Shown: positions 3,386-18,348 of the stretch, piece after piece
Layout: the number at the start of each line of letters is the position of its first letter
Position numbering within the stretch: the first letter of the stretch is position 1
Origin: Promethearchaeota archaeon
GTDB lineage: Archaea; Asgardarchaeota; Lokiarchaeia; Sigyniarchaeales; SOKP01
Assembly (NCBI GenBank): GCA_016840165.1
Contig: JAEOSU010000038.1
Location: 1-64,000 of the forward strand
Length of the DNA stretch: 64,000 bases
Direction of reading: 5' to 3'
The notes under the pieces: model-generated
Seen by the model: the letters and a program-made list of their open reading frames with translations, nothing else
The model's database searches: none
What the model was told of the DNA's origin: nothing
Position numbers and translations under genes: made by a program

Positions 3386-4129
3386 TTATTCTTTTATATG
3401 TCCTAATACCCCAACATAAATAGAGGTTTCATTGATTCCATCAATCTCCAACAGTTGGTTTAACTCATCATCATATATCGCACCGATGGTACAAGCTCCA
3501 AGGTTTAATGCTTCCGCTACTAAATAAAAATTTTGCCCTATGTGTCCTGCATCTAAATATATGTATCTATAGCATCGCTGGGAATATTTCCATTGCGATC
3601 TGTCAATTACTGCTGTCAAGATAAAATTGACACTAGATTTATATGCCATCTCTTGATCCAAGCATCCTTTTGCTACTTCCATTCGAAAATCACCTTTATT
3701 TAGTAATTCAAGATTATGGCTGGCGATATCATAATGATAAACGCCTTGGGATAAATTCGAAACATTATTGATTATTGGATATGTCTCTATTGGATAGAGG
3801 CCTCCCGCAGAAGGGGTAGTTCGAAATGCAAAATTAGGAAACTTACGCGTCAATCCTGTCATTCCATATAACAATAAACTTAATTCCATAATTGATATCG
3901 GAGATGAATTAAAATTACGAGATGATTTCCTATTGGTAATCGCTTTCCAGAATTGAATGCTATCATCAAATTTAGGTTTCGGAAGCTCGACTACATCCAT
4001 TGCATCGGGGTAATTCTTATAAGTTGGAGGTTTATTATCCCAATCCAAATAATGACGTGGTAATTGCCCTCTAATATATTTCGATTTTTTTTGAAACTCA
4101 TCTCCATATGGATCCATACTATCTCCCAT
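3386..4129 (-). CDS. SagB/ThcOx-family FMN-dependent dehydrogenase (nitroreductase fold)
   Basis: Motifs RKSSRNF, RTTPSAGGLYPIETY, YRYIYLDAGHIGQN, LGACTIGA. Confidence 0.9.
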   Translation of the reverse strand: MGDSMDPYGDEFQKKSKYIRGQLPRHYLDWDNKPPTYKNYPDAMDVVELPKPKFDDSIQFWKAITNRKSSRNFNSSPISIMELSLLLYGMTGLTRKFPNFAFRTTPSAGGLYPIETYPIINNVSNLSQGVYHYDIASHNLELLNKGDFRMEVAKGCLDQEMAYKSSVNFILTAVIDRSQWKYSQRCYRYIYLDAGHIGQNFYLVAEALNLGACTIGAIYDDELNQLLEIDGINETSIYVGVLGHIKE

Positions 4130-4217
4130 AACTAAAATGAGTTTAATTAATTTTAAAATATTGAGCTAATAAATTAAAAATAAAGTAATTAAGAATTAAA
4201 AAAAAATAATTGACACA

Positions 4218-4457
4218 TTATTTTACTGCTTCAAAATAGATGTGCCATTGTTCTTCGTCTTCGATAAAATCGGTCCCTAAATGCTTATGTTTCGTTTGTT
4301 TTAATAAATCTCTTGGAACAGACTCACTAGCTGGTTTGTAATCGGTTATGACCTTCAACACAGTACCTGGTCGCATTTTCATAAGCTGTTTTTTTGTTTT
4401 GAGGGCTGGTACAGGGCAAACTAATCCACAAACATTTAATTCCATATCAAAATTCAT
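4218..4457 (-). CDS. tusA: TusA/SirA-family sulfur carrier (second copy)
   Basis: GLVCPVP (CPxP) motif; ATG at 4457 preferred because it follows a GAGAGG SD. Confidence 0.85.
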   Translation of the reverse strand: MNFDMELNVCGLVCPVPALKTKKQLMKMRPGTVLKVITDYKPASESVPRDLLKQTKHKHLGTDFIEDEEQWHIYFEAVK

Positions 4458-4491
4458 ATTTTTTCCTCTCATTTAATTTTTTTAATAAAAT

Positions 4492-6960
4492 TTAAGATTC
4501 ACACAATAGTGTGAAAATGGGTTCATCTCTTCCTTGATCAACTTTCATTTCAAGTTTCATCATCTGTGTTAATCGAAGAGCTTCATATCGTACTTTTTTC
4601 GAGTCTAAGTTCAAGTTTTTTGCAATTTCGCTGATGGTCCCTATTCCTTGAGTAGTGATGTAGTCAAATACTTGTTGTCTGGGTGTTTTTTCAAAAGTCA
4701 TTAATTCTCGTTTTGATTTGAGATTTATCGCTTTGTTTAGCTCCTCTTCGTTTACTTCTCCTTTTTCAAATAAACCCGATTCAATTGCACTCTCTACTAT
4801 TTCCTTACCCCTTTCAGTCCACACCACAACAGTTGTATAACCTTTTTGGGAACCAACCTCTCCTGCGGTTAAATCTGAATAGATTGCAGGAAAGTCTTGA
4901 CAGTGACTACAAAAATGATTACAACTTAAGCATCTACGGGCTTCTTGTAAAGCCATATCCTCATTAAACATTTGATCTATTTCTTCAAAGCTCCAGTTGA
5001 TCTCTTGCGTTGCCTCCTCTAAAGATTCAGGTTTTAATGAATAATCTTTTGGGGGTTTCTTAGGACCAGTAAAGAAAGAATTTACTTTCTTATATCGTCC
5101 TTCTGTTAAACTTTCTCCTTTTAGATATTTATCAATTGAAATAGCAGCTTCTTTTCCGTGAGCAATCGCTGCTATAGCAACCGCTTTTGAATTGTTAATG
5201 ATATCACCACCGGCAAATACTCCAGAAATATTTGTCTCAAAAGTAACTTCATTGACTTTAATTTTATTTCGTTCTTTTTCAAGTTTATTTTCTGTTGCAG
5301 CGTCAATTTGATCAAAATCCACTGCCTGGCCTACTGCAATAACAATTGAGTCTACTGGAATCTTATAATCCGAACCGTCCACTTTATTAAGAGCCTTTCT
5401 GCCATTTTCATCAGGAGCTCCCCATTCAATCTGATAGCAATTTAAAACTAATTTACTATCTTCACTTTGTGTGATTTTAGAGGTCGAAGTTTTAAAGTGA
5501 TATTTCATAAAGTTCATCTCGTTATCGGGGATATCCTTCAATACTAATTCTAATTGTTCTTCAGACATGATATCCACTAAATGCACTTTCTCAGCACCCA
5601 AACGTAAAGCGGTTTGGGCTACATCAACGGCTACTGGACCACCACCAATGATTCCTAATGTTTTTCCCTTGAATTCTTCATTATTTTCCCAATAACGATA
5701 TTTCCTATCCATCAGAAAACTAATCGCAACATGAACATTTGGGAGATCATCACCTTCTAAATGAAGAGTTCGAGGCTTATATTGCCCAGTAGCAATAAAA
5801 AACGCTTCAAACCCATCATTTTTCAAATCCTCGATGGTCATCTCAGGACCTAATGAGCTATTCAGAACTACTTTAACTCCCGATTCAACTATCCTTTCAA
5901 CATCATAGTCTAAAACGTAATTTGGTAAACGAAATTGTGGTACTCCGAATCGAAGCATCCCTCCAGTTTTATCAGTTTTTTCAAATATTGTGGGAGCGTA
6001 TCCTATTTGCCTTAAATAATATGCTGCGGTCAATCCCGCGGGTCCAGAACCAATAATAGCAATCTTTTTAGCATTTTTGTCTATTTTTGGTTTCTTTCTT
6101 GCTTTTGTGGAATTTTCGATTTCCCATTCAGTTACGAATTTTTTTAATTCTCTAATCGCGACAGGATGATCATCTCCTATTAATGTACATCCATGCTCGC
6201 ATTCATTTGTACAAATTCTTCCACAAATTGAAGGTAATGGATTATTTTGACGGATTAAATCTACCGCTTCTTGATACTTTCCTTGTCGAATCAATGAAAT
6301 ATAACCTTGAGCATTTACCCCAGAAGGACACCCATTGCAGCATGGAGAACAGACGATCCCCTTATCAGTAAGTTCAGTTCGCATATGAGAGTTGCAGAAA
6401 AGTCCGAATTTAAATATTTCACGGTTCATTTCTTCTTCTAATTCCGCAGCACCTCGAATCTCACAAGGAACTCCTACAATACCTACTGGTTCTGAGGTTT
6501 CTCCTACAAGTTTCACCAATTTTTCAAGTACTCCAGAACGCCCATAAACCACGCCTGCTTTTTCAACGACTTCTTTTGGATCCGATACTATATCTGCTTC
6601 TGGTTTTTCTTCTATCTCTTGTACCATCACAATCTCAGCTAACTCCTTATTATCTAGCAAGGATTTTGCTAAGGTAGTAACTACTCCACCACTAGCTGCT
6701 TTTGCTAAAATTTCAGGATTTTTACTTCTAAGTGAGTATATAGCTTTTGGCTTCTGTTTTTCAAACTTTTTCTGAATAACTTGGGGACAATTCTGATAAC
6801 ATTTCCCACAGTCTTGTCCTTCACGTTCTAAAATACAATAATCTTTAAGAACAGGGCGTCTAACTTCCATTTCAATATGCTTACACGACCCCACACAGAG
6901 ACCGCATCCCTGGCATAAACCAGCGTCTATTATTTCACTTTTTAATAGTTCAAAACTCAT
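4492..6960 (-). CDS. FrhB/FdhB-family subunit with an inserted GltD/NfnB-like FeS-flavoprotein and a C-terminal winged-helix-like domain
   Basis: N-terminal CxxCxxCxxxC; ASGGVVT, GVPC, GLFC (FrhB); then PCxxxCP..NPLPSICGRIC, GSGPAG, GGMLRFGVP, GGGxVAxD, FAGGD, EARRCLSC (GltD-like); then CSHCxD..DLTAG..G..TTVVVWTERG (FrhB C-terminus). Confidence 0.85.
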   Translation of the reverse strand: MSFELLKSEIIDAGLCQGCGLCVGSCKHIEMEVRRPVLKDYCILEREGQDCGKCYQNCPQVIQKKFEKQKPKAIYSLRSKNPEILAKAASGGVVTTLAKSLLDNKELAEIVMVQEIEEKPEADIVSDPKEVVEKAGVVYGRSGVLEKLVKLVGETSEPVGIVGVPCEIRGAAELEEEMNREIFKFGLFCNSHMRTELTDKGIVCSPCCNGCPSGVNAQGYISLIRQGKYQEAVDLIRQNNPLPSICGRICTNECEHGCTLIGDDHPVAIRELKKFVTEWEIENSTKARKKPKIDKNAKKIAIIGSGPAGLTAAYYLRQIGYAPTIFEKTDKTGGMLRFGVPQFRLPNYVLDYDVERIVESGVKVVLNSSLGPEMTIEDLKNDGFEAFFIATGQYKPRTLHLEGDDLPNVHVAISFLMDRKYRYWENNEEFKGKTLGIIGGGPVAVDVAQTALRLGAEKVHLVDIMSEEQLELVLKDIPDNEMNFMKYHFKTSTSKITQSEDSKLVLNCYQIEWGAPDENGRKALNKVDGSDYKIPVDSIVIAVGQAVDFDQIDAATENKLEKERNKIKVNEVTFETNISGVFAGGDIINNSKAVAIAAIAHGKEAAISIDKYLKGESLTEGRYKKVNSFFTGPKKPPKDYSLKPESLEEATQEINWSFEEIDQMFNEDMALQEARRCLSCNHFCSHCQDFPAIYSDLTAGEVGSQKGYTTVVVWTERGKEIVESAIESGLFEKGEVNEEELNKAINLKSKRELMTFEKTPRQQVFDYITTQGIGTISEIAKNLNLDSKKVRYEALRLTQMMKLEMKVDQGRDEPIFTLLCES

Positions 6961-6962
6961 TT

Positions 6963-8198
6963 TTATCCCTCTTTGATTGTAATTTCTTTAATTACTCCTT
7001 TTGGATCAATACTATAGTTTAAAGACCCATTTTTATAGGTCCCTTCTGCTACTTCAAAAATATGACTTTTGTAGCTTTCAAAATCCTCATTATCATCAAT
7101 TTTCTGTTTAAATCCACCAAAATACACATTAGACAGATTCATGTTTCCAGCAATCTTTCGGATTTTTTCAGTTGTTTCTTTATATTTTTGAGCATCTTTA
7201 TTATTCGTAGCTTCAATTAATTCTGTTTCTAATTCTAATAATTCGCTACGATACTTTTTCGTTTGTTCACTGATTTCTATATTATTCGCTTTTTCATAAG
7301 TTTCAATAATTTTAAGTATTAATGAAATTGATTTATTTCCACCTAATAATCCCGCAATAAGGGGTAATTCTTCGATTAATCTTCCAGTAAAAACATCTTG
7401 AAGTAAATCACCAGAAGATTGCATTCTTCCCCTTGGTAAACCTGAAGTTGGTAAGGTAAATCGAAAGAAATTTCCAAGAATGTCTGGTAAACTATCCGTT
7501 ACATCATCTTCAGCATCCGCAAGTTTGTCAGTAGCTCCTTTTTCAGAATGCTCGGTAGCCATTTCAATATTTCCCATAAGTGTGCCAAACATTCCCAACA
7601 TACGGACTCCAGATCTTTCTACCATAGGTTTGCACCCTCTACACGGAGTATTATAATCGATACACCTTTCTTTGCATTCTTTTGCAATAAATCCATTACA
7701 AAGAAATCCTAAATCATTAAAGCAAGTTTCATTATCTTCAATCTCAATTTGTCTATTTACAGAGTCAAGATATTCACAGGTTGCTCTCCGCTTACATGCA
7801 TTACAAAGTGGTCTGTTCTCTCGCGATTCTTCACCGTTTATTGCTGCAATTAGTTCCTCTATTTCCCCTAAACAACCATCTACAGTAATCTCATTAGAAA
7901 CGAAGTTTTTTAACGGAGTGACTTGATGACCTTTTTGATTTGCTAATGCAAAGATTCCTCCTGTTGTAGTGCAATCCCCAAATGCAATAATTCTTTCAGC
8001 ATTGTTTTGGATATTTTGAACGGAATCTAAATCATTCGGTAATAAATATCCAGTAATTATTGCAACATCCATAGATTCTGCTTTCCACTCGTGAGGATTG
8101 GAAATGAATTCTACCTTAATATTATCCTCTAGCTTTAATAATAAAGTTTCATAGAAACATTTATTACAACCATTAAATTGAAATATTTTAACATCCAT
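6963..8198 (-). CDS. MvhG/FrhG-like hydrogenase small-subunit FeS protein with a ~150-aa C-terminal extension resembling a degenerate large subunit
   Basis: GCNKC, GDCTTTGG, DGC, CNAC, CFxxxGxxCxG..C..C..PCRGC. Confidence 0.8.
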   Translation of the reverse strand: MDVKIFQFNGCNKCFYETLLLKLEDNIKVEFISNPHEWKAESMDVAIITGYLLPNDLDSVQNIQNNAERIIAFGDCTTTGGIFALANQKGHQVTPLKNFVSNEITVDGCLGEIEELIAAINGEESRENRPLCNACKRRATCEYLDSVNRQIEIEDNETCFNDLGFLCNGFIAKECKERCIDYNTPCRGCKPMVERSGVRMLGMFGTLMGNIEMATEHSEKGATDKLADAEDDVTDSLPDILGNFFRFTLPTSGLPRGRMQSSGDLLQDVFTGRLIEELPLIAGLLGGNKSISLILKIIETYEKANNIEISEQTKKYRSELLELETELIEATNNKDAQKYKETTEKIRKIAGNMNLSNVYFGGFKQKIDDNEDFESYKSHIFEVAEGTYKNGSLNYSIDPKGVIKEITIKEG

Positions 8199-8640
8199 AC
8201 TTTATCGTCCCCTCTTCTTTAATTGCTGTGGCTAATCGTTCCACAATATCTTCAAAGTCCCCTACCGCAGTTTCTCCTTCCGCAGCTCTTGAAGTGTACT
8301 GGTTTATGAACTGGTCACTATATCCTAGTTCTTTAAATAACTTTTTCATGAGTTTTATTCTATGCATTGATAATAAGTTTCCATTGAAAAAATGACATGC
8401 CCCTATACAACATCCAACGCATGCAACAGCATCAGCACCGTTATTTAAGGCATCCATAATTTGGATAGGTCCAATTTGACCAGTACATTGAACTCGAACA
8501 ATTCGTATTGCAGGTTCATAAGCCATTCTTGCTACGCCCGCAGTATTTGCTGAGCCTTGACCACATTCATTGCACATAAAAACAACTATGTTTTGAATTT
8601 TCCCTTTTATTTCTTCGTCTATAACTGCACAATCACTCAT
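8188..8640 (-). CDS. mvhD: MvhD/FlpD [2Fe-2S] subunit
   Basis: FMCxxC, RIVRVQCTGQ, GADAV, GCxxGxCHFxxGN; ATG at 8640 overlaps the hdrA stop (ATGA). Confidence 0.9.
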   Translation of the reverse strand: MSDCAVIDEEIKGKIQNIVVFMCNECGQGSANTAGVARMAYEPAIRIVRVQCTGQIGPIQIMDALNNGADAVACVGCCIGACHFFNGNLLSMHRIKLMKKLFKELGYSDQFINQYTSRAAEGETAVGDFEDIVERLATAIKEEGTIKYGC

Positions 8641-10667
8641 TCGCAAACGGCACCTCCGCCAGATACGGCGATTATTTCATCTAACAATTGATCATCGCTA
8701 AAATTGATTAATTGAATCGCTTTTGTTGGACATACGGGCATGCACATTCCACACGATTTACACGCAACTTCATTTACGGATGGTGTCCCATTTTCATCAA
8801 TATCAATCGCAGCTGGAGCACAAACCGTTTTACAAAGTCCACAATTCACACATAAATCATAGTCAATTGTAGGAATAAGCATTTCTTTCTCAATATATCC
8901 TTTTACTAATGGAGCAGCGGCTAAGGCGGCAGCACTTCCTGCGTGGGCAACACTCTCAGAGATATCTTTTGGACCTTGAATTGTACCAGCTAAAAAAATA
9001 CCTCCCTTACTACTTAAAGTAGGATTCATTTTTATATGGAATTCTTTTAGGAAACCTTCCTTTGATCGTAATACATGAAGTTTAGAACCAAGTGGTCCAA
9101 TTCCTTCAGGAGGAACCATAGCAGCTGACAAAACAACTAAATCTGCTTTTAATTGTAATGGAGTCTGACTTAACGTATCTTCGACTATCACTCTCAATTC
9201 ACCAGTTAATGGGTTTCTTACTATTTCTGAAGGTCTACCCCGAATAAACCTAACTCCTATTTCTTGAGCAGATTTGTAAAGCTCTTCAAAATTAAGTCCA
9301 GGTGTTCTTACATCAATATAACAGATGGTAACATCAGTATCCGGATACATTTCTTTAATAATTCTCGCATTCTTTACAGCAAACTTACAACAGACGCCAG
9401 TGCAGTACACATTCCCTACCTGATCATTTCTACTGCCGACACATTGTATCATAACGACACTTTTTGGAATTTTACCATCCGATGGTCTCAAAACTTCGCT
9501 ATTTGTTAATGAAGTTGGTGATAACATTCGTTCTAGTTTAAGCTGCGTAATTACATCTTCAAATCCTTCTTGTCCATAATGATATGGCTCGATTTCTGAA
9601 GGATCATATTCATCATATCCCGCGGCGACAACAATCGATCCAACCTTAATGGTTTTTGTTTCTGGTTGCATTGAAAAATCTACTGCTTGAACAGGACAAA
9701 TATTTACACATGTATTACAATCAATACAATTCTTTTTGTCTCGTATATATGTAGCAGGAATCGCTTGTGGATATGCTTTATATATAGCTTTTCTCATAGA
9801 CATTCCCATATCCCATTCACTTGGGAGTTCAACTGGACAATGCTCAGCACATTCACCACAAGAAGTACAGTTATCTTTTACATAGCGTGGCTTAATTTCA
9901 AACTCGACTTCAAAATTACCTAAAGAACCTTCAATATTTTTAACTTGTGAATTAGTATATAGCTCTATTAGCGGATGATTGGCAACACCGTTAGTTAACG
10001 GCGAGATTGAGCACTGAGGACATTCAAGAGTAGGAAATGTTTTATTAAGTCTTGTCATATGTCCACCTATGGTTGATTCTTTCTCGATAAGATAAACTGG
10101 GATCCCTAATTCTGCCATATCGTGGGCAGCTCTAAGACCAGCAATCCCTGCACCTATTACCAATGCAGCTTTAGTTGTCTTTACTCTTCTGGTCTCTACA
10201 TCCTCTAATTTACGGGCTCTATTTACTCCCGCTTCTACTAACTGCATGGCTTTTTGATCTGCTTTCTCCTTTTCTTTTTGATGTACCCAACTACAATATT
10301 CACGTACATTTACTTGCTGATGTCGATGTTTATTAAGTCCCATTTCTTCAATTGCCCGCGCAAAAGTTTTTCCATGTTGATTTTTAGAGCAACTGGCAAC
10401 TACAGTCCGGTTGACACCTAATTCTTTAATTGAATCCTTTACCATTTGCACCCCAGGTTTGGAACACATAAACATGTAATGTTCAGCCTTTACAACATTA
10501 GGTAAGGTTTTTGCATAATCCGCAACTTTTGCGACATCAACCGTACTAGCAATGTTATGGCCACAATGGCACACGAATACTCCGATTCTTGTTTCTTCTG
10601 AATCATTTTCCTTAACTGTATCATCTACATTTTCTGCTTTTTCAACTTTTTCTTCTTTTATTGTCAA
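8637..10667 (-). CDS. hdrA: Heterodisulfide reductase subunit A
   Basis: IGVFVCHCGHNI, MCS, VIGAGIAG, KTFPTLECPQC, inserted 2x[4Fe-4S], IQCVGSR, CxxxCC, GPKDI, C-terminal ferredoxin. Confidence 0.95.
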   Translation of the reverse strand: MTIKEEKVEKAENVDDTVKENDSEETRIGVFVCHCGHNIASTVDVAKVADYAKTLPNVVKAEHYMFMCSKPGVQMVKDSIKELGVNRTVVASCSKNQHGKTFARAIEEMGLNKHRHQQVNVREYCSWVHQKEKEKADQKAMQLVEAGVNRARKLEDVETRRVKTTKAALVIGAGIAGLRAAHDMAELGIPVYLIEKESTIGGHMTRLNKTFPTLECPQCSISPLTNGVANHPLIELYTNSQVKNIEGSLGNFEVEFEIKPRYVKDNCTSCGECAEHCPVELPSEWDMGMSMRKAIYKAYPQAIPATYIRDKKNCIDCNTCVNICPVQAVDFSMQPETKTIKVGSIVVAAGYDEYDPSEIEPYHYGQEGFEDVITQLKLERMLSPTSLTNSEVLRPSDGKIPKSVVMIQCVGSRNDQVGNVYCTGVCCKFAVKNARIIKEMYPDTDVTICYIDVRTPGLNFEELYKSAQEIGVRFIRGRPSEIVRNPLTGELRVIVEDTLSQTPLQLKADLVVLSAAMVPPEGIGPLGSKLHVLRSKEGFLKEFHIKMNPTLSSKGGIFLAGTIQGPKDISESVAHAGSAAALAAAPLVKGYIEKEMLIPTIDYDLCVNCGLCKTVCAPAAIDIDENGTPSVNEVACKSCGMCMPVCPTKAIQLINFSDDQLLDEIIAVSGGGAVCE

Positions 10668-10668
10668 T

Positions 10669-11586
10669 TTAGACGACCTCTTGTTCTTTTTTCATTTGCT
10701 TTTCTCCAAAAATATAATTTTTACCCATTAATTGATATTGAAGCCCAACAAATTCTTGATCCATTCCCATACAATAAGCTGTCAACTGAGATATATGAAT
10801 TACCGGATAATCATAATCGCAGCTCTTATTCTTATTTAAGTAGTCCTGTCCTGTCTCAAATTGCAAATGACAAAATGGACATATATCTAATATAAAATCA
10901 GGTTTCACAGTATCGATATTTCTCATTTTCTCTCCAAATATCGTCATACTCGCATCACCTGAATAAGCTTTTACACCACCACCCGCACCACAACATGTTA
11001 GTTGTTCTTTAAAGCGTACCGATTCGACACCTAAAGCTTCAATATACTCTTCGATAATGGTAGGCCCTTCAGAACTTTCAATTTCTCGGATTCGGGTTGG
11101 TTTTAAAAAATGACAGCCATAATGAACTGCAGCACGAGCGTTTACTTTTCTTACGATCATATCTTCAATACCCCAAGGACCTATATCATAGCCTAAAACT
11201 TCACCAATATGACGAACATTAATTGTACCCTTAAACTCATAATCCCCAATTAACTTCAATTTTTCATTAACCATGATTCGATGATCTTCATTTTCTTTCA
11301 GATGTTTGTTGACTTCTTGAAGGGTTCCAAAACAGCCATTACAAACTGTTAGAATATCACAATCCAATTGTTCCGCGATACATAGATTTCTTGCAGCAGC
11401 AACCATCCAATCTATTTTATTAAATGAGCGAAATACACCAGGAGCGGGACAGCAGCCTGCTTTTTCCATATCTAGCAATTCATATCCTAATTTTTCCATA
11501 ACAAATTTCGTAGCTTTTTCTATAGCAGGATATCTATTTGGCATTAAGCATCCAAGAAAAAATGCAAATGATTTCTCTTTTACCAT
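10669..11586 (-). CDS. hdrB: Heterodisulfide reductase subunit B
   Basis: Two CCG domains: FLGC..RYP / CCPAPG / CNGC and HYGCH / CCGAGGG / CPFC. Confidence 0.95.
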   Translation of the reverse strand: MVKEKSFAFFLGCLMPNRYPAIEKATKFVMEKLGYELLDMEKAGCCPAPGVFRSFNKIDWMVAAARNLCIAEQLDCDILTVCNGCFGTLQEVNKHLKENEDHRIMVNEKLKLIGDYEFKGTINVRHIGEVLGYDIGPWGIEDMIVRKVNARAAVHYGCHFLKPTRIREIESSEGPTIIEEYIEALGVESVRFKEQLTCCGAGGGVKAYSGDASMTIFGEKMRNIDTVKPDFILDICPFCHLQFETGQDYLNKNKSCDYDYPVIHISQLTAYCMGMDQEFVGLQYQLMGKNYIFGEKQMKKEQEVV

Positions 11587-11598
11587 TCTTTTCTCCTC

Positions 11599-12147
11599 CT
11601 ATTCTTCTTTTTCTTCCTCTTTCACGGGAGGAAGATCAAACATATATTTTTCAAAATTTTTTAAATCTTTATCATCCCCCTCTTGCTTAAACTTAAACAA
11701 TGTGGGAGGTAATTCTTCTAAACCTAATTCTACTCTTCTTTGTTTAACTTCATCATTAATCGGAACTGCATGCCCCGTATTTTTTAAATAACCAACAACC
11801 GCCCTATGATTTGGAGAAATATTGCCTCGTTTCGTGGCATAATTCCTTAATTCCATAATAACATCAGTTGGCCTCACATCTCTTGGACATCGTTCATAAC
11901 ATTGATAGCAAGTAGTACATAGCCAGATATCAGGATCATCTAAAACTGAAAGATCCCCTAATACTACTTTGCGTACTATATTGCGAGTTTTTAAAGCAGT
12001 CCATCGACCACTTTCACAACTAGCAGTACATGTTCCACATTGAATACATTTCCAGATGTTAGACTTTCTCTCAATATTTTTGAAGAATTCTTGATCAAAA
12101 TCCTCATCTGTCATGAATTCTTTATGTTCTTCCTTTACATCAGACAT
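11599..12147 (-). CDS. hdrC: Heterodisulfide reductase subunit C
   Basis: CIQCGTCTASC, IWLCTTCYQCYERCPR, TGHAVP. Confidence 0.95.
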   Translation of the reverse strand: MSDVKEEHKEFMTDEDFDQEFFKNIERKSNIWKCIQCGTCTASCESGRWTALKTRNIVRKVVLGDLSVLDDPDIWLCTTCYQCYERCPRDVRPTDVIMELRNYATKRGNISPNHRAVVGYLKNTGHAVPINDEVKQRRVELGLEELPPTLFKFKQEGDDKDLKNFEKYMFDLPPVKEEEKEE

Positions 12148-12186
12148 AATTTCTCACCAATTTACTATAAAAATAAAAAAAAATAT

Positions 12187-12603
12187 TTATAATGATACTA
12201 CTTGACCGCCATCAGACATTTCAATAAAACCTGCGGCGCCTATGGGATCTTCGACAAAGTCCCACATTTCTTCTCTCTTGATGTTCATTAAATCCATAGT
12301 CATTTGACATGGGTAAAGTTTCATCTTACCATCATCGACTGCTTCTTTAATGAGGTCCCAAGGTTCTTCCATTCCAAACTTCTTTAAACGCTTTCTAAAC
12401 ATCCCAGCTGCCATACCTTTCATTGGAGCAGGCATTCCTGCCACTTTTGGCTTAAATTTCTTTTTTAAGAGATTTAATCCCCAGAATGTAAAAAAGAAGT
12501 TCATCTCAACGTCCATCGCGCCTCCTGTTGTGCCAAGTATTGTCATCATCATAAATTTTTCGAAAGATTTGTCTTTCACAATAAAATTCATTTTTTCAAC
12601 CAT
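12187..12603 (-). CDS. DsrE-like (DrsE_2 / peroxiredoxin-family) sulfur transferase
   Basis: FFTFWGLNLL, YPCQMTMDLM, GAAGF; ATG at 12603 lies 5 nt after GGTGA. Confidence 0.85.
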   Translation of the reverse strand: MVEKMNFIVKDKSFEKFMMMTILGTTGGAMDVEMNFFFTFWGLNLLKKKFKPKVAGMPAPMKGMAAGMFRKRLKKFGMEEPWDLIKEAVDDGKMKLYPCQMTMDLMNIKREEMWDFVEDPIGAAGFIEMSDGGQVVSL

Positions 12604-12657
12604 ATATTTCACCTTATTTTCTTTTTTTGTTTTTTTTAATATATATTTTATAATTTT

Positions 12658-12677
12658 GGCTAATCGATTAATTAGCC
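12658..12677. promoter_or_regulatory. Inverted repeat GGCTAAT-N6-ATTAGCC, containing the palindrome TAATCGATTA, in the dsrH/dsrE2 spacer
   Basis: Read directly; GC-containing dyad in an otherwise AT-rich ~150-bp gap; function inferred. Confidence 0.35.
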
Positions 12678-12752
12678 GGCTTTATATTCAAATTATTACT
12701 TACTCGTAAAAAATATCTTATTTTTTTCTTAATTCTATTTATTTAGTCATCT

Positions 12753-13082
12753 CTATATCCAAGAAACGACTTTTTGTGTCGATTCTAAAACATCTACAAG
12801 TTCATTATAATCAATTGCATTTATTTTATCATGCAATTGATTAAGGGCTATACCTCGGGCGTTCATATCAGGTTTCAGAGCATAAACTGTAATATTTAAA
12901 TCTAAAAGCTCAATCATAGATTTCGGTATCTTGCCTTTTTTAGAGATACCTATTACTCCATCATGGATTAAAACAAATCCGATTCGATGATTTTTATTAA
13001 TCTGAGCTTTTAGAATTGGTAATAATCGCTCTAAGTGGCTTCCCGTCATTTCACTAAATCCAAACAAATATATTAAATCCAT
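12753..13082 (-). CDS. dsrH: DsrH/TusB-family sulfur relay subunit
   Basis: LIHDGV, VYALKPDMNARG, IDYNELVD, terminal SW. Confidence 0.85.
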   Translation of the reverse strand: MDLIYLFGFSEMTGSHLERLLPILKAQINKNHRIGFVLIHDGVIGISKKGKIPKSMIELLDLNITVYALKPDMNARGIALNQLHDKINAIDYNELVDVLESTQKVVSWI

Positions 13083-13097
13083 TTCGATACTCCTCCT

Positions 13098-13466
13098 TTA
13101 GAACCTAATGCAAATATCTACGTTATCTATTAAATCTACTAAATCATCTACCGAGATGATATTTAGATTCTCATATTCTACCAAATCATCTTTAGAAAGA
13201 CCTGCATCAGCCAATGCGGAATCCAAGATATATAGTTCTAGATCAGATAAGTCTGCCATTTCAAATACCTCCTCTAAATTATCCATGCCAACAACTTCAG
13301 GCGCTGCATCTTTATTTAACAGATACACTGCATCTCCAGTAAAGACTACCTTACATTCTATATATTCACCTAAAGCCACAAACCCAGAACCAATTCTTAT
13401 TGCTTCAACAGCCGAGTTTTTACCCACAGGTGATTTATCAGTAATTATTAATGCGGATTCAACCAT
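13098..13466 (-). CDS. dsrF: DsrF/TusC-family sulfur relay subunit
   Basis: SPVG..AVEAIR, VVFTGDAVYLL; lies between dsrE- and dsrH-like genes. Confidence 0.8.
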   Translation of the reverse strand: MVESALIITDKSPVGKNSAVEAIRIGSGFVALGEYIECKVVFTGDAVYLLNKDAAPEVVGMDNLEEVFEMADLSDLELYILDSALADAGLSKDDLVEYENLNIISVDDLVDLIDNVDICIRF

Positions 13467-13471
13467 GATGA

Positions 13472-13840
13472 CTAACCTCCTGGTCCAAAAACTATGACTT
13501 TTTCAGATTCTACTGACCAATTAGAAAAGTCTCCTAAACCTTCTTCAACTGCACCATCAATGAATTCCTCTTCCTTCAATCCCGTTAAACTCACCCAAGT
13601 ACTACATCCAGCGATCGGAATGGCATTTTGTTTACAAAAATCTTCAATCTTTTTCGGAATGTTTCGAATAGAAGTCCCACAACTGATCTCCTTTTTAAGG
13701 TTATATACTCCTGAACCATAAAAGAACAAACCCTTGATATTATGCCCCTTTTTAATCAATGCTTCAGCGATTTGAATCAAAGAATCTGATGCTTCGAATT
13801 TATAAGGTTCTGTACTTATAAAGAACGTGTATGTCGTCAT
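13472..13840 (-). CDS. dsrE: DsrE/TusD-family sulfur relay subunit
   Basis: PY..A..KGH....FFYxxGV, Cys at the catalytic-equivalent position (AGCSTW), GLGD..KVIVF. Confidence 0.85.
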   Translation of the reverse strand: MTTYTFFISTEPYKFEASDSLIQIAEALIKKGHNIKGLFFYGSGVYNLKKEISCGTSIRNIPKKIEDFCKQNAIPIAGCSTWVSLTGLKEEEFIDGAVEEGLGDFSNWSVESEKVIVFGPGG

Positions 13841-13869
13841 TGTATAATCTGCCTCAATCATTCCCCTAT

Positions 13870-14094
13870 TTAATTCTTTTTAATCATAAAAGTGACTTTT
13901 TCGCCTTCTTCTCTTGTCTCCATTAACTCATCGCCAGTTTTATGCAATAAAGCTGGCACGTCCTTGAGGGCTCCTTTGTCGTCTACGATAAGTTCTAAAA
14001 CTTGACCCGAATTTAATTTTTTTAATTCTTTTCTCGTCATTAAGACAGGCATAGGACATTTTTTTCCTAAAGCGTTAAGTGTCATATCAGCCAT
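13870..14094 (-). CDS. tusA: TusA/SirA-family sulfur carrier
   Basis: GKKCPMPVL, GQVLELIVDD..A..DVP. Confidence 0.9.
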   Translation of the reverse strand: MADMTLNALGKKCPMPVLMTRKELKKLNSGQVLELIVDDKGALKDVPALLHKTGDELMETREEGEKVTFMIKKN

Positions 14095-14203
14095 TATTTT
14101 CAACTTTTTCAGTTTTTTTTTCTACTTTTTTGCGTTATAATATCAGAAAAAATCTTGTTTGATATTATTTATAGATCAAAAATATACAAATCTATTTAAA
14201 GTA

Positions 14204-14280
14204 TAGTTTTTTTTCTTATAACAAGTATGATTTTATAATAAAAAAAACTAAGAATAAGTATATTATAGAAAAAAAAACTA
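14204..14280. promoter_or_regulatory. Three 17-bp boxes at 30-bp period; candidate Lrp-type operator
   Basis: 14204-14220 (reverse complement TATAAGAAAAAAAACTA), 14234-14250 TATAATAAAAAAAACTA, 14264-14280 TATAGAAAAAAAAACTA. Confidence 0.55.
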
Positions 14281-14398
14281 TTTAATCGAGAAAAATCGAT
14301 AGTTATATGAATTACTATTACCAAATTATTGATGGAACAAACTAATATTTTATAATTTTTTTAAATATTTTTCAAAAAATTGGAATCGTGACAAGAAT

Positions 14399-14893
14399 AT
14401 GGTCGTTGCAGACTCAGAGAAAATAACTCTGGATAATATTGATAAACAAATTCTTGAACTACTTCAAGATAATGCGAAGTATACCATACGGGAAATAGCC
14501 GACAAAACCGAAAAAAGTGTTACTGCTGTAAGGGTTCGCATTAAAAGATTGGAGGATGAATTAATTAAAAAGTATATGGCGATTGTGGATTGCCGAAAAT
14601 TGGGTTATAGAGAAATGGTGATCGCTTCTCTACGCGTGAATTCTTCGCAACCTCTAGATGATATCAAAAATAAAATTGAAAAAATGCCACAAGTTAAATA
14701 TGCCTATATAGTAACAGGAGAGAGGCCCATAATTGCTATGTTTAAATGTTTAGGTCATGAAGAAGCAATGGATTTAATAGAAGATCTCCGTAAACTTCCT
14801 GGTGTAGAAGAAATAAACACGCAAATTGTATTAGATCGGATAAAAGAAGATCATTCGATAATTATCCCCGAGGATAAGAAGAAGCAATCATAA
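14399..14893 (+). CDS. Lrp/AsnC-family transcriptional regulator, divergent from the tusA-dsrEFH-hdr cluster
   Basis: LDNIDKQILELLQDNAK...IA...VRVRIKRLE HTH plus C-terminal RAM domain (YIVTGE). Confidence 0.92.
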   Translation: MVVADSEKITLDNIDKQILELLQDNAKYTIREIADKTEKSVTAVRVRIKRLEDELIKKYMAIVDCRKLGYREMVIASLRVNSSQPLDDIKNKIEKMPQVKYAYIVTGERPIIAMFKCLGHEEAMDLIEDLRKLPGVEEINTQIVLDRIKEDHSIIIPEDKKKQS

Positions 14894-15729: not shown

Positions 15730-17355
15730 ATGAAAACTAAAACAAAATACCTAGTGATTTTATTAATAATGGGACTTTTTTTTCCTTTACTTCTCAATTT
15801 TAACTTTAATTTAAACAGCGAAGTTAATACTAATTTAATTAATCCAAAAAGTTCGGGAGCTTATATCGAATCATTCATTCATATTGATGGGAGCGTTCCT
15901 GGGAATTGGTCTGATACAGTAACTACCTATTCGTGGTGTTCTGGTGATGGGTCATGGAGTAATCCCTATATAATTGAAAATGTTACTGTTGATTGTGGTG
16001 GTACTGGGACTGGAATTTTAATAGAAAATTCAAATACTGAATATTTTATCGTAAGAAATTGCACGGTTTACAACACGGGTAATGGATTGTTTGATAGCGG
16101 AATCAAACTAGAAAATACGTGTATTGGCACGATTTTTAAGAATAATGTCTCAAATAACCAAGTTAATGGAATTTGTTTGATTGGATGTAATAATAATACC
16201 ATAATTGAGAATACCGCAAACCATAACTATCTATATGGGATAAACTTAATTAATAATTGCGATTATAATACCATCTCGGGAAACACCGTAAACTACAACT
16301 CTCGTGGTATACAATTATATGATTATTGTGATTATAACAATATTTCGGGAAACATCGTATGTAACACTACCGACATCGGGATACTTTTATATGATTATTG
16401 TGGTCATAACACCATCTCGGGAAACACCGTAAACGATAATGCCTACGGGATATATTTTGAAAATAAATGTAACAATAATACGATTTCGGGAAACACCGCA
16501 AACGATAACCCGTACGACGCGATATATTTACACAAGTGTGATAATAACACCATCTCGGGAAACACCGCAAACGATAACGATTGCGGGATATATTTTGATG
16601 ATTATTGTGATAACAACACGATTTTGGGGAACCATGCATTTAACAATACCAATGAAGGGATATATTTGGTGGATTTGTGTGATAATAATACTATTACTGA
16701 AAATGCCTTATACAACAATACTATAGGAATACGTGTTGAATCAGATAATAATAACAATTCAATTTATAAAAATTTCTTTCTGGAAAATGGAATACATGCT
16801 GTCGATGATGGAATAGATAACAAGTGGAATAACACGATTATTGGAAATTACTGGGATAACCATACTGGTCCAGATGTCAATCCTAATGATGGAGTTGTGG
16901 ATGTTCCATATACATATATCGGTGGTTCTGCGGGAAGTATAGATTATTTGCCAATAGCTGAAGATGGTGCACCAATGATTACAATTAATTCACCTTCTTC
17001 AGGTAGCATATTTGGTGTTTCTGCTCCTTCTTTCGATGTGACTATCACTGACACTACTTTAGTATCAATGTGGTATACTATGGATGGAGGTATTAACAAC
17101 TACACTTTTACAGAAAATGGAAAGATAGATCAATCAGCGTGGGATATTTTACCTAAAGGAAGTATCACCATTACCTTTTATGCTATTGATATTGTAGGTA
17201 ATGAAGCATTTGAAGAAGTTAGTGTAATCAAGAATGTTCCAAGTGGTTTAGACCCGGGTGCGATAATAACTATTGTAGTTATTTCTGTAGTAGGTGGGGT
17301 TGCTGTATTAAGTATGGCTTATATATATCTTAAAAAGCGAAGAGCATCAGCGTAA
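15730..17355 (+). CDS. Membrane-anchored right-handed beta-helix (NosD/pectin-lyase-like) surface protein with Ig-like stalk
   Basis: GDGSWSNPYIIEN, repeated NNTISGNT..N..GI, GNYWD, WYTMDGG, C-terminal TM plus basic tail. Confidence 0.88.
   Translation: MKTKTKYLVILLIMGLFFPLLLNFNFNLNSEVNTNLINPKSSGAYIESFIHIDGSVPGNWSDTVTTYSWCSGDGSWSNPYIIENVTVDCGGTGTGILIENSNTEYFIVRNCTVYNTGNGLFDSGIKLENTCIGTIFKNNVSNNQVNGICLIGCNNNTIIENTANHNYLYGINLINNCDYNTISGNTVNYNSRGIQLYDYCDYNNISGNIVCNTTDIGILLYDYCGHNTISGNTVNDNAYGIYFENKCNNNTISGNTANDNPYDAIYLHKCDNNTISGNTANDNDCGIYFDDYCDNNTILGNHAFNNTNEGIYLVDLCDNNTITENALYNNTIGIRVESDNNNNSIYKNFFLENGIHAVDDGIDNKWNNTIIGNYWDNHTGPDVNPNDGVVDVPYTYIGGSAGSIDYLPIAEDGAPMITINSPSSGSIFGVSAPSFDVTITDTTLVSMWYTMDGGINNYTFTENGKIDQSAWDILPKGSITITFYAIDIVGNEAFEEVSVIKNVPSGLDPGAIITIVVISVVGGVAVLSMAYIYLKKRRASA
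16255..16640 (+). repeat. Intragenic ~69-bp (23-aa) tandem repeats
   Basis: TCGGGAAAC cores at 16276, 16345, 16417, 16486, 16555 and a degenerate copy at 16624. Confidence 0.85.
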
Positions 17356-17358
17356 TTT

Positions 17359-18348
17359 TCAATTATATTTCTTTTTCTTTTTATTCTTTCGATTTACAAG
17401 AGTTATTCCTAAGATCACTAATAATAGGGAGATAGGATATATAAAAAAATCAAATTTCTCTTGTAGAAAAAGTGCGGAAAATAAAACCCCAAATAATGGC
17501 ACTAAAGTTTGAAAAATAGCCGCTCGACTAGCATCTAAACGTTTAACACCTTCTAAATAAAATGTATAAGCACCCACAGTAGAGAGAAAAGCTAAGTAGA
17601 ATATCCCCATCCAAACTCGAATTGGAATAGATAAATAAACTATGGGATTGAGAAATTCGGGACTAAATATCAAAGCTATTGGGGTCGTAATAGCAAATCC
17701 AAAAAGGGAAACCCACGTCATAATCCAAATAGAGCTTGGCTGGTATTCTGATGAAGATTCTTTAACCTTATTTAAAAAATAACGTGAGATAACCGTATAT
17801 ATCGCATAAGCCAAAGCTGCTATTAGGATCAAAAAATCACCTAATATTCTATTTAATACATTAAGATTTGGAGAAAACCCAAAAATTATAAAAACTGCGA
17901 AAAATGCTAAAAGGCTGCCTAATAACTTTTTCCATGTAAAAGATTCTGACTTAAGAAATATGCTAGAGAGAATAACCACCCATATCGCATTCGTTGCAAC
18001 TACAATACTAGCATCACTCGCAGCAGTGAATAGTTCACCAAATAGATATCCAGTTTGATAAATTGTTACAGAAAGAAGACCCATTATACTGAGAATTTTT
18101 GCATTTTTCTTAGCAAATTGCCAGTTGACTGTGTTTTCCTTTAATTTAAGGATAATAAAAAGACAAACGATTGCTAAAAAATATCGAATTACCGCAATCA
18201 TGAGTGGCGGAATAGTTGGACCTCCTATATCTTCTGAAACTAACCATCTACCGATTGGCCAAGTTCCTCCCCAGATCACTGCTGTAAAAATTAATAAAAT
18301 ATAGGCGATTAACTCATTTTTTTTAATGGCATAATTCCTTAATATCAA
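17359..18348 (-). CDS. DMT/EamA-family transporter
   Basis: IWGGTW, two EamA halves, ~10 TM, LSALFLQE. Confidence 0.9.
   Translation of the reverse strand: MILRNYAIKKNELIAYILLIFTAVIWGGTWPIGRWLVSEDIGGPTIPPLMIAVIRYFLAIVCLFIILKLKENTVNWQFAKKNAKILSIMGLLSVTIYQTGYLFGELFTAASDASIVVATNAIWVVILSSIFLKSESFTWKKLLGSLLAFFAVFIIFGFSPNLNVLNRILGDFLILIAALAYAIYTVISRYFLNKVKESSSEYQPSSIWIMTWVSLFGFAITTPIALIFSPEFLNPIVYLSIPIRVWMGIFYLAFLSTVGAYTFYLEGVKRLDASRAAIFQTLVPLFGVLFSALFLQEKFDFFIYPISLLLVILGITLVNRKNKKKKKYN

Follow-up and report, generated by a model that had tools for sequence, protein, structure and literature searches.

In hydrogenotrophic methanogens, HdrABC is found together with the MvhAGD module (HdrABC-MvhAGD; 5ODC), and its disulfide acceptor is CoM-S-S-CoB. 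Under nickel limitation, methanogens have an F420H2-dependent form, Elp-Hdr, in which a truncated FdhA, an FdhB/FrhB-like F420H2 oxidiser and an MvhD homologue feed HdrABC (PMC12350162). In the sHdr-LbpA system, the genes are arranged as hdrC1B1A-hyp-C2B2, HdrA is short, lipoate-binding proteins are present, and TusA/DsrE3 feed sHdr (PMC11094781); a dsrE3A-dsrE2B-tusA set is known from Metallosphaera (PMC4175335). In Desulfovibrio, DsrC interacts with FlxABCD-HdrABC (cited in PMC10504309), and this soluble Hdr complex, linked to NADH, has been proposed to use a sulfur-carrier protein as substrate.

For Asgard archaea, metabolic models simply write 'MvhADG-HdrABC', as in the MK-D1 preprint. A 2025 preprint on Nerearchaeum marumarumayae (10.1101/2025.07.22.663070) had already hypothesised that the Hdr of an Asgard archaeon acts on TusA/DsrE-bound persulfides. 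Its donor is a group 3c [NiFe] hydrogenase, and the proposal takes up one line of a metabolic scheme; the passages available contain no synteny, phylogeny, vestigial hydrogenase or FrhB module. A literature search for earlier descriptions of sulfur-relay genes linked to hdr in Lokiarchaeota/Asgard found only a legend in this preprint.

Gene content of the locus

The window, i.e., the whole 64,000-nucleotide stretch of DNA that was analysed, comes from a Lokiarchaeia (Asgard) MAG that is 99.7% complete, in agreement with the Asgard-type origin suggested by an earlier sequence-only reading. Thirteen co-oriented minus-strand genes span positions 3386-14103 in the order tusA-dsrE-dsrF-dsrH-dsrE2-hdrC-hdrB-hdrA-mvhD-mvhG-like-frhB::gltD-tusA-SagB-type nitroreductase. 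Each of these genes named in the sequence-only reading was found at its place on the minus strand, and the tight spacing it described was borne out, with intergenic gaps of -11 to +39 nt apart from two wider ones of 140 nt (dsrH/dsrE2) and 88 nt (tusA2/nitroreductase). The Lrp gene was also recovered as divergent from the cluster. The features are:

14399-14893, plus strand: lrp, Lrp/AsnC regulator (PF13412, PF01037), divergent from the cluster
13870-14103, minus strand: tusA1, sulfur carrier with CPxP cysteine (PF01206, 3.6e-23)
13472-13861, minus strand: dsrE (PF02635; TIGR03012 below the equivalog cut-off)
13098-13466, minus strand: dsrF (PF02635; TIGR03010 below the equivalog cut-off)
12753-13082, minus strand: dsrH (PF04077; TIGR03011 at 56.9 bits, above the cut-off of 49.2)
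12187-12612, minus strand: dsrE2, soluble DsrE2B-type carrier (PF13686, 1.6e-22)
11599-12147, minus strand: hdrC, two [4Fe-4S] clusters (TIGR03290 at 178 bits, above the cut-off of 160)
10669-11586, minus strand: hdrB, methanogen type (TIGR03288 at 362 bits, above the cut-off of 345)
8637-10667, minus strand: hdrA, 676 aa, full-length bifurcating type (5odc_A match, 4e-193)
8188-8646, minus strand: mvhD, [2Fe-2S] connector (PF02662, 1.4e-31)
6963-8198, minus strand: mvhG-like gene, 411 aa
7431-8198, minus strand: MvhG part, residues 1-256 of the 411-aa protein (aligned to 9sw2_E and 5odc_E)
6963-7430, minus strand: miniature Cys-free [NiFe] large-subunit remnant, residues 257-411 of the 411-aa protein (AF2 model and VIA-align)
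4492-6960, minus strand: frhB::gltD, 822 aa, with FrhB_N, Fer4_20, Pyr_redox_2 and FrhB_C (PF04422, PF04432)
4218-4472, minus strand: tusA2 (PF01206, 1.5e-17)
3386-4129, minus strand: SagB-family nitroreductase (TIGR03605 at 158 bits, above the cut-off)

The true start of dsrE2 is probably the ATG at codon 4. With HdrABC-MvhAGD the cluster shares HdrA, HdrB and HdrC from end to end, MvhD and MvhG with their cluster ligands, and an HdrB in which the CoM/CoB-contact residues are mostly kept; it differs in having a 155-aa Cys-free remnant fused to MvhG instead of an active MvhA, in the addition of FrhB (with or without GltD) and in the linked sulfur-carrier genes. The resemblance to sHdr-LbpA lies in the position of hdr genes beside TusA and DsrE-family carriers and in a DsrE2 of the DsrE2B type, but here MvhD, the MvhG fusion and FrhB are encoded, and a true DsrEFH trio stands in place of DsrE3. 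As the sequence-only reading had stated for lbpA, the cluster holds no GcvH-like gene; two such genes are located elsewhere in the genome (contigs C54 and C63). Its claim that the cluster fits neither the methanogen Hdr-Mvh nor the sHdr pattern was upheld: an active MvhA is missing, HdrB and HdrC form a single pair where sHdr has two (C1B1 and C2B2), HdrA is of full length, and LbpA is not encoded in the cluster. Compared with FlxABCD-HdrABC, the genome has no DsrC, the donor module is another one and F420 is involved.

The HdrABC core

HdrA, HdrB and HdrC all align end to end with their methanogen counterparts, and HdrB and HdrC score above the CoB-CoM reductase equivalog cut-offs. Residues 24-665 of HdrA match residues 2-646 of the methanogen protein 5odc_A, while the short sHdrA (6tjr_A) covers only HdrA residues 339-586; the protein is thus of full length, with its FAD and ferredoxin domains. 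HdrB contains PF02754 twice, with two complete CCG motifs (non-cubane [4Fe-4S] clusters) whose cysteines are invariant, and matches 5odc_B with an E-value of 1e-90. With a single hdrB and a single hdrC in the cluster, the earlier description of one methanogen-type HdrB was correct.

A phylogeny of HdrB, proposed in the sequence-only reading as a check, placed the relay-linked proteins with the methanogen enzymes: in a quick tree they formed one clade (SH-aLRT 97) among canonical methanogen HdrB, with the HdrB of the source genome inside the clade and the other HdrB paralogs of the genome outside it. The existence of such a clade is new here. The nearest non-Asgard HdrB proteins are true methanogen enzymes with 43-50% identity, and no more than two alignment columns tell the Asgard clade apart from the methanogen proteins.

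Most of the CoM/CoB-contact residues known from 5ODR are conserved: Arg14, Gly46 and Gly198 do not vary, and at Arg201 the only replacement is Lys, in 41 of 47. Nothing in the pocket suggests that it has been reshaped to admit a substrate carried by a protein, and since most contact residues are retained, a small anionic disulfide may still be accepted as substrate. Arg240 was considered as a lost CoB-phosphate ligand and was dropped as a marker, as it varies in methanogen-type HdrB too. Prediction of a complex between HdrB and TusA2, both given as 16-row alignments, scored 0.00 and provided no answer.

The electron donor module

Residues 1-256 of the 411-aa protein align to nearly the whole of MvhG (9sw2_E, 5odc_E) and carry Cys ligands for three Fe-S clusters that are invariant in the orthologs. 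For the C-terminal 155 residues, Pfam gave nothing meaningful, and the Atlas feature search returned only sub-threshold NiFe large-subunit leads (0.84). The AF2 model of the whole protein was poor (pLDDT 57), and its Foldseek matches were small subunits, aligned to the small-subunit part only. The C-terminal part was modelled well on its own (pLDDT 88); Foldseek with this model found large subunits only at E 0.07 or worse. Its identity was settled by VIA-align, where the top 15 matches were all [NiFe] large subunits or complex-I-type (Nqo4/NuoD-type) homologues, with Z 9.4-13.5 and 144-155 residues aligned, the next unrelated match having Z 5.3. By hhalign, the remnant maps to the L1 RxCGxC region of two of the genome's own large subunits, with the cysteines replaced. 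The remnant is entirely Cys-free, and both the N- and the C-terminal Cys pairs of the [NiFe] large subunit are missing. From sequence and structure prediction together, the 411-aa protein is a complete MvhG fused to a miniature, Cys-free [NiFe] large-subunit remnant, which is new here. An intact MvhA is absent from the cluster, as noted earlier from the sequence, a remnant without metal ligands being carried instead. The canonical MvhA genes elsewhere in the genome have their own MvhG, and the set on contig C30 also has its own MvhD.

In the frhB::gltD product, FrhB is made up of residues 1-207 and 684-805, interrupted at about residues 208-683 by a GltD/NfnB-like Fe-S flavoprotein. The Thor-type orthologs are plain FrhB and match only the two FrhB segments of the fusion. 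The GltD-like insert is specific to the Lokiarchaeia gene order, which is likewise new here. An acidic residue at the end of beta-2 of the NAD(P)H fold is present in all 20 of 20 frhB::gltD orthologs. FrhB itself occurs in every version of the module, and a genome check proposed in the sequence-only reading recovered F420 biosynthesis, with CofH above the cut-off and CofG-like, CofE and CofD proteins present. The F420/NADH donor side postulated there is well supported by the universal FrhB, the F420 genes, the MvhA remnant without metal ligands, and canonical MvhA genes that have partners of their own.

As in an Elp-type donor, an FrhB/FdhB-type subunit and an MvhD-type connector lie beside hdrABC in an organism that makes F420. 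The likeness to Elp-Hdr extends to the F420H2 oxidiser, the connector, the lack of a hydrogenase, and a dead truncated catalytic subunit as probable scaffold. However, the Elp scaffold stems from formate dehydrogenase, whereas MvhG and the mini-MvhA here are of [NiFe] hydrogenase descent, and the relation to ElpA is one of analogy, not homology. The Lokiarchaeia in addition have the NADH-type GltD/NfnB module inside FrhB, and the acceptor would be another than CoM-S-S-CoB.

The sulfur carriers

The CPxP cysteine of TusA1 is invariant in the 26 orthologs aligned, and that of TusA2 is invariant across its aligned orthologs. DsrE and DsrE2 each have one invariant Cys in the aligned orthologs, in the motifs (A/G)C(S/T)TW and LYPC(Q/S)MTM, respectively. 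The candidate persulfide cysteines of both TusA copies, DsrE and DsrE2 had been reported as kept in this locus, and they are kept throughout the aligned orthologs as well. DsrH has no cysteine, and its ortholog alignment contains no conserved one. The trio is of the DsrEFH/TusBCD kind, with three paralogous subunits and the active Cys on DsrE/TusD. The best solved relative of DsrE2 is 2qs7_A, which it matches over the full length (4e-18); 2qs7 is cited as a DsrE2B structure from Sulfolobales archaea (PMC11094781).

TusA2 is the carrier most constantly tied to the module, as its gene adjoins frhB, or is divergent from hdrC, in every order. Its motif CGLVCPVP raised the idea of a two-Cys DsrC analogue, which was dropped because other orthologs have T, R or Q in place of the second Cys. 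DsrEFH normally hands over to DsrC/TusE, but the whole 99.7%-complete genome gave no PF04358 match for this acceptor, and no NIR_SIR match for siroheme sulfite reductase either. The absence of dsrC/dsrAB had been noted before for the window.

Conservation of the linkage across Asgard genomes

Of 41 Asgard HdrB loci, 38 have relay genes beside hdr and the remaining three are truncated by contig ends, while none of 39 methanogen/ANME/Thermoplasmata HdrB loci has such genes. The linkage is not due to chance. It is found in Lokiarchaeia, including the cultured Promethearchaeum syntrophicum MK-D1 and Lokiarchaeum ossiferum, and in Thorarchaeia-type genomes, thus spanning two Asgard classes and four gene orders. 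In the Lokiarchaeia order the relay is upstream of hdr, and in the MK-D1 family lrp is inserted between dsrE2 and hdrC. The relay is downstream in Thor-type genomes; another Thor subgroup has tusA<>dsrE-hdrCBA, and one locus (L038) reads dsrE-dsrF-hdrCBA-mvhD-mvhG*-frhB-tusA. A relay not linked to hdr in related genomes, which the sequence-only reading had named as evidence against itself, was not what this synteny check showed.

The flanking genes are less constant. The Lrp gene goes with the cluster in Lokiarchaeia and is more distant in Thor-type loci. The SagB-like nitroreductase is present and adjoins the cluster here, as described earlier, but the association is loose: some relatives have the gene at a distance of 1-1.5 kb, none was detected in Thor-type loci, and its membership of the module is doubtful.

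Proposed function and alternatives

We infer that the cluster encodes a hydrogenase-independent heterodisulfide-reductase complex, driven by F420H2/NADH and probably bifurcating, which reduces sulfane sulfur delivered by the relay; the probability of this reading is roughly 45%. F420H2 would be oxidised at FrhB and, in Lokiarchaeia, NADH probably also at the inserted GltD/NfnB-like flavoprotein. The electrons would pass the three Fe-S clusters of the MvhG subunit, held by the dead miniature MvhA remnant, and would then travel by way of MvhD and its [2Fe-2S] cluster to the full-length HdrA, at whose flavin bifurcation probably takes place. One path would lead to the reduction of ferredoxin. HdrB would reduce sulfane-sulfur or disulfide species handed over by TusA1/2, DsrEFH and DsrE2, candidates being a persulfide, polysulfide, thiosulfonate or carrier disulfide, with release of sulfide, so that the relay would fill the place of the CoM-S-S-CoB of methanogens. 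CoM-S-S-CoB itself is unlikely as the acceptor, because neither McrA (no MCR_alpha match) nor ComA was found in the 99.7%-complete genome. A fermenting/acetogenic Asgard archaeon would thereby gain both a sink for electrons and a supply of reduced ferredoxin.

In the sequence-only reading, HdrB was to reduce or oxidise carrier-bound persulfides or disulfides. The linkage behind this proposal stands, while the chemistry is deduced from it and has to be set against the retained CoM/CoB-contact residues; the oxidising direction seems unlikely for a fermentative anaerobe without LbpA. Several observations speak against relay-fed sulfur reduction. No carrier has an obvious flexible Cys arm (DsrC-like) or lipoyl arm (LbpA-like). 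In one relative (G005), hdrC through frhB::gltD is cleanly deleted and the relay persists, another (G008) has a tusA-dsrE2 pair on its own, and Ca. Harpocratesius has lost most of frhB::gltD and kept the rest. The reduction potential of persulfide/S0 is rather low (~-270 mV), which is marginal for bifurcation from F420H2/NADH to ferredoxin. The stronger proposal that TusA/DsrE-carried sulfane sulfur replaces CoM-S-S-CoB as the high-potential bifurcation acceptor in Asgard archaea, so that F420H2/NADH-driven sulfur reduction yields reduced ferredoxin, is put forward as less likely than not.

It is unlikely, in our estimate, that the same donor module serves an HdrB whose substrate is a mixed sulfur compound or an anionic (hetero)disulfide of small size, such as a novel thiol cofactor pair or a free thiosulfonate/polysulfide, with the relay making, loading or recycling the compound and the carrier itself staying out of the active site. 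The conserved CoM-sulfonate and CoB-contact positions, with Arg201 changing only to Lys, the equivalog scores of HdrB and HdrC, and the closeness to true methanogen enzymes are in its favour. Moreover, Metallosphaera DsrE3A and TusA carry thiosulfonates, which have a sulfonate group as CoM does (PMC4175335). On the other hand, the missing McrA and ComA count against it, no candidate cofactor pathway is tied to the cluster, and the tight, repeatedly reshuffled linkage with four carriers points to direct hand-over.

Slightly less likely again is an assimilatory or biosynthetic role, in which Hdr would supply the reductant that mobilises or releases the sulfur of S0, thiosulfate or carrier persulfides for use in tRNA thiolation, Fe-S clusters or cofactors, with no energy-conserving sink. 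The Nerearchaeum preprint (10.1101/2025.07.22.663070) proposes that another Asgard archaeon assimilates sulfur reductively through TusA/DsrE persulfides in a process coupled to Hdr. The persistence of the relay after hdr loss in G005 and the lone tusA-dsrE2 pair in G008 agree with this role, as do the dsrEFH sets: genome G000 has just the one of the cluster, and many relatives have a second near ThiF-TusA-ThiI-like thiolation genes. However, the sediments inhabited by such archaea are rich in sulfide, which would seem to make reductive assimilation superfluous. An HdrA of the bifurcating type, 676 aa long and joined to a large donor module, would also be heavy machinery for trace sulfur, TusE/DsrC and the bacterial Tus end-point are absent, and about half of the genomes of the family do without the module.

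An sHdr-like oxidative function, in which HdrB oxidises carrier-bound sulfane sulfur and F420 and/or NAD+ are reduced with the electrons gained, is improbable. TusA/DsrE-type carriers beside hdr are the hallmark of sulfur-oxidising sHdr (PMC11094781), and DsrE2B-type proteins adjoin Hdr-like genes in Sulfolobales. Against it stand the single HdrB/HdrC pair, the full-length HdrA, the lack of LbpA in the cluster and the grouping of HdrB with methanogen enzymes. Oxidation of sulfane sulfur by NAD+/F420 is, furthermore, endergonic without a high-potential sink.

Least probable of all is selenium traffic, with carriers moving Se and Hdr reducing selenotrisulfide-like adducts to selenide for selenophosphate synthesis: both TusA copies also match YedF selenium-metabolism models, the GltD-like part matches YgfK and 'diclust_near_Sec' below cut-offs, and the genome uses selenocysteine (selD with an in-frame TGA), but the selenium-model matches are all far below cut-offs, a separate yedE-yedF-like-selD locus is present on contig C40, and Se, required only in traces, does not justify a complex of this kind. 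The YedE and TusA pair on C40 was also considered as a thiosulfate importer for the relay; this was dropped, since the pair adjoins the Sec-containing selD and hence belongs to a selenium locus.

Implications

The cluster bears on the old question of what soluble HdrABC reduces in non-methanogens, for which it gives concrete candidate substrates. At least one Asgard Hdr module is no hydrogenase complex at all, and after Elp it would provide a second and independent example in which a catalytic subunit has been cut down to a scaffold within an F420-dependent donor arm of Hdr. Both cultured Lokiarchaeia, MK-D1 and L. ossiferum, carry the cluster, which makes the idea accessible to bench experiments. 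Should sulfur be the acceptor, the finding would be relevant to hydrogen-sulfur syntrophy scenarios of eukaryogenesis and to cryptic sulfur cycling in marine sediments. If relay-fed sulfur reduction is indeed coupled to bifurcation, it would supply reduced ferredoxin for the Wood-Ljungdahl pathway or H2 evolution, and the lineage closest to eukaryotes would possess a bifurcating Hdr that is driven by sulfur and derives from a hydrogenase whose active site was lost.

Organization of the gene cluster and its host genome

The window is contig C15 of a 3.6-Mb assembly with a completeness of 99.7%, and the closest proteins and loci came from Lokiarchaeia/Promethearchaeota MAGs. The gene set and order proposed from the sequence alone were borne out by Pfam and NCBIfam for all 13 co-oriented genes and for the divergent lrp.

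Features of the cluster, from the first gene of the minus strand onwards, with supporting evidence
14399-14893, divergent from the 13-gene cluster: lrp
3386-14103, minus strand: the 13 genes below
TusA, first copy (Pfam and NCBIfam)
DsrE, DsrF and DsrH (Pfam and NCBIfam)
DsrE2, soluble (Pfam and NCBIfam)
HdrC (NCBIfam, above the CoB-CoM reductase equivalog cut-off)
HdrB (NCBIfam, above the CoB-CoM reductase equivalog cut-off)
HdrA (Pfam and NCBIfam)
MvhD (Pfam and NCBIfam)
6963-8198: 411-aa protein, gene mvhG* (Oxidored_q6 domain)
4492-6960: 822-aa protein, gene frhB::gltD (FrhB_N, Fer4_20, Pyr_redox_2 and FrhB_C domains)
TusA, second copy (Pfam and NCBIfam)
Nitroreductase, SagB family (Pfam and NCBIfam)

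Intergenic gaps are small or negative; only dsrE2 and the nitroreductase gene are preceded by longer ones, of 140 nt and 88 nt, respectively. The alignment of HdrA with its methanogen counterpart runs from end to end, whereas the short sHdrA matches its core only, and HdrB matches methanogen HdrB structures at approximately 1e-90. DsrE2 is of the DsrE2B type, with 2qs7 as the best solved relative. The region past lrp (15730-18348) encodes a beta-helix protein of the NosD-like kind (541 aa) together with an EamA transporter, neither having an evident tie to the cluster.

The genome has at least 10 hdrA paralogs and, elsewhere, two real [NiFe] hydrogenase sets, each with its own small subunit. 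The set on contig C30 (273600-278200; locus L052:5604-10188) also has its own MvhD: it encodes an HdrA-MvhD fusion of 840 aa that carries a DUF7347 domain at its N terminus, followed by MvhG (259 aa) and MvhA (433 aa). The set on contig C19 (2231-6399; L050) encodes an unusually long small subunit (466 aa) and a large subunit, with HdrC-like and HdrB-like genes immediately downstream. A locus on contig C40 (14236-18191; L053) looks like one for selenium utilisation with a selenoprotein SelD: yedE is split into two ORFs, a TusA/YedF-like gene is present, and selD carries a single in-frame TGA.

Conservation of the linkage between sulfur relay and hdr genes

Within the genome's own family, an ortholog of the 411-aa protein was detected in 63 of 134 genomes. 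Further orthologs occurred in 6/14 and 1/4 genomes of two sister families, in seven genomes of one family of Thorarchaeia-type (Thor-type) Asgard archaea, and in one further genome that is probably mis-binned. Within Lokiarchaeia the whole gene order is retained wherever contigs allow; the family to which Promethearchaeum syntrophicum MK-D1 and Lokiarchaeum ossiferum belong has lrp between dsrE2 and hdrC. The Thor-type order is hdrCBA-mvhD-mvhG*-frhB-tusA-dsrEFH, one Thor subgroup has tusA<>dsrE-hdrCBA, and one metagenome contig carries dsrE-dsrF-hdrCBA-mvhD-mvhG*-frhB-tusA.

An HdrB profile scanned against 185,579 species genomes gave 529 confirmed matches, of which the best 80 were retained. 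Among these 80, sulfur-carrier (relay) genes were present at 38 of the 41 Asgard loci, the remaining three being cut by contig ends, and at none of the 39 methanogen/ANME/Thermoplasmata loci. In a quick maximum-likelihood tree, 47 relay-linked HdrB proteins formed one clade (SH-aLRT 97) among methanogen-type HdrB, with the genome's own paralogs outside it. The linkage noticed in the sequence-only reading recurs in Lokiarchaeia and Thor-type genomes in several gene orders. Across 41 relatives and three queries, relay presence tracks presence of the hdrCBA-mvhD-mvhG*-frhB module, the kin not being independent of each other. Four MAG loci (L055, L063, L067 and L068; JBHL... records) labelled Hermodarchaeota, Hodarchaeota or Odinarchaeota encode HdrB 85-87% identical to this Lokiarchaeia HdrB, and their taxon labels look unreliable.

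There are exceptions to the linkage. In L027 (G005:C156), the stretch from hdrC through the 5' half of tusA2 has been cleanly deleted, leaving tusA1-dsrEFH-dsrE2, a tusA2 fragment, the nitroreductase gene and lrp, and a second relative (G008) has a tusA-dsrE2 pair only. Ca. Harpocratesius repetitus FW102 (L023/L091) has mostly lost frhB::gltD, the short remnant matching only residues 1-80 and 761-816, and retains the other cluster genes. Many genomes of the genus carry a second dsrEFH set (~50% identity) about 4 kb from genes for ThiF, TusA and a ThiI-like PP-loop protein (L033:3333-10730 of G017:C79, L034, L035); it is absent from the window's genome.

A donor arm resembling Frh/Mvh

In the 411-aa protein, residues 1-256 can be aligned to almost all of MvhG, and their Fe-S ligands are invariant. 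The remaining tail (residues 257-411) shows strong conservation and is free of cysteine. Profile comparison maps this tail to the L1 RxCGxC nickel-binding region (residues 38-101) of two large subunits encoded in the same genome, with other residues in place of the cysteines (in the better case, probability 66%, E 5.5e-5). When the predicted tail model (pLDDT 88) was compared exhaustively with known structures, the top 15 rows were all [NiFe] large subunits or complex-I-type (Nqo4/NuoD-type) homologues (Z 9.4-13.5, 144-155 residues aligned), and the first unrelated row had a Z of 5.3. On the basis of these alignments and the model, the protein is a fusion of MvhG with a miniature, ligand-free MvhA. 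The family is small and amounts to about seven clusters (50% identity) in a set of 1.8 billion representatives.

The ends of the 822-aa protein (residues 1-207 and 684-805) are FrhB and its middle is a GltD/NfnB-like Fe-S flavoprotein. As the Thor-type counterpart is a plain FrhB of 345-389 aa matching only these ends, the insert is an innovation of the Lokiarchaeia order. An acidic residue ending beta-2 of a dinucleotide fold usually favours NADH. In the insert (fold at residues 428-475), beta-2 ends in Asp/Glu in 20/20 orthologs, which points to NADH rather than NADPH. F420 biosynthesis, flagged for checking together with CoM/CoB by the sequence-only reading, is represented in the genome by CofH above cut-off, a CofG-like neighbour, CofE and CofD.

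The donor arm therefore reads like Frh/Mvh minus the hydrogen site, and electrons would pass from FrhB through the MvhG clusters and MvhD to HdrA. The nearest parallel shown by experiment is Elp-Hdr (PMC12350162), whose substitute for Mvh consists of a truncated FdhA, an F420H2 oxidiser of the FdhB type and a homologue of MvhD.

Electron acceptor and proposed function

A literature search found no paper describing the cluster. Established relatives of the idea are TusA/DsrE with sHdr (PMC11094781) and, as cited in PMC10504309, DsrC with Flx-Hdr. Neither Mcr and ComA nor DsrC/TusE and DsrAB-type reductases were found in the 99.7% complete genome, and no LbpA is linked to the cluster. Since, in addition, the candidate persulfide cysteines of four of the relay carriers are invariant in ortholog alignments, sulfane sulfur delivered by the relay is the best candidate for the HdrB acceptor. 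However, the HdrB positions contacting CoM and CoB, defined in the solved enzyme (PMC13261682), are largely unchanged in the relay-linked clade. This counts against sulfane sulfur and makes a small anionic disulfide a possible substrate; speculatively, the sulfonate-binding glycines would suit a thiosulfonate too.

The cluster itself is well anchored by comparative evidence, the proposed substrate being putative. To a reductive, probably bifurcating Hdr complex fed by the relay, in which HdrB would pass electrons to relay-delivered sulfane sulfur, we give a probability of roughly 45%.
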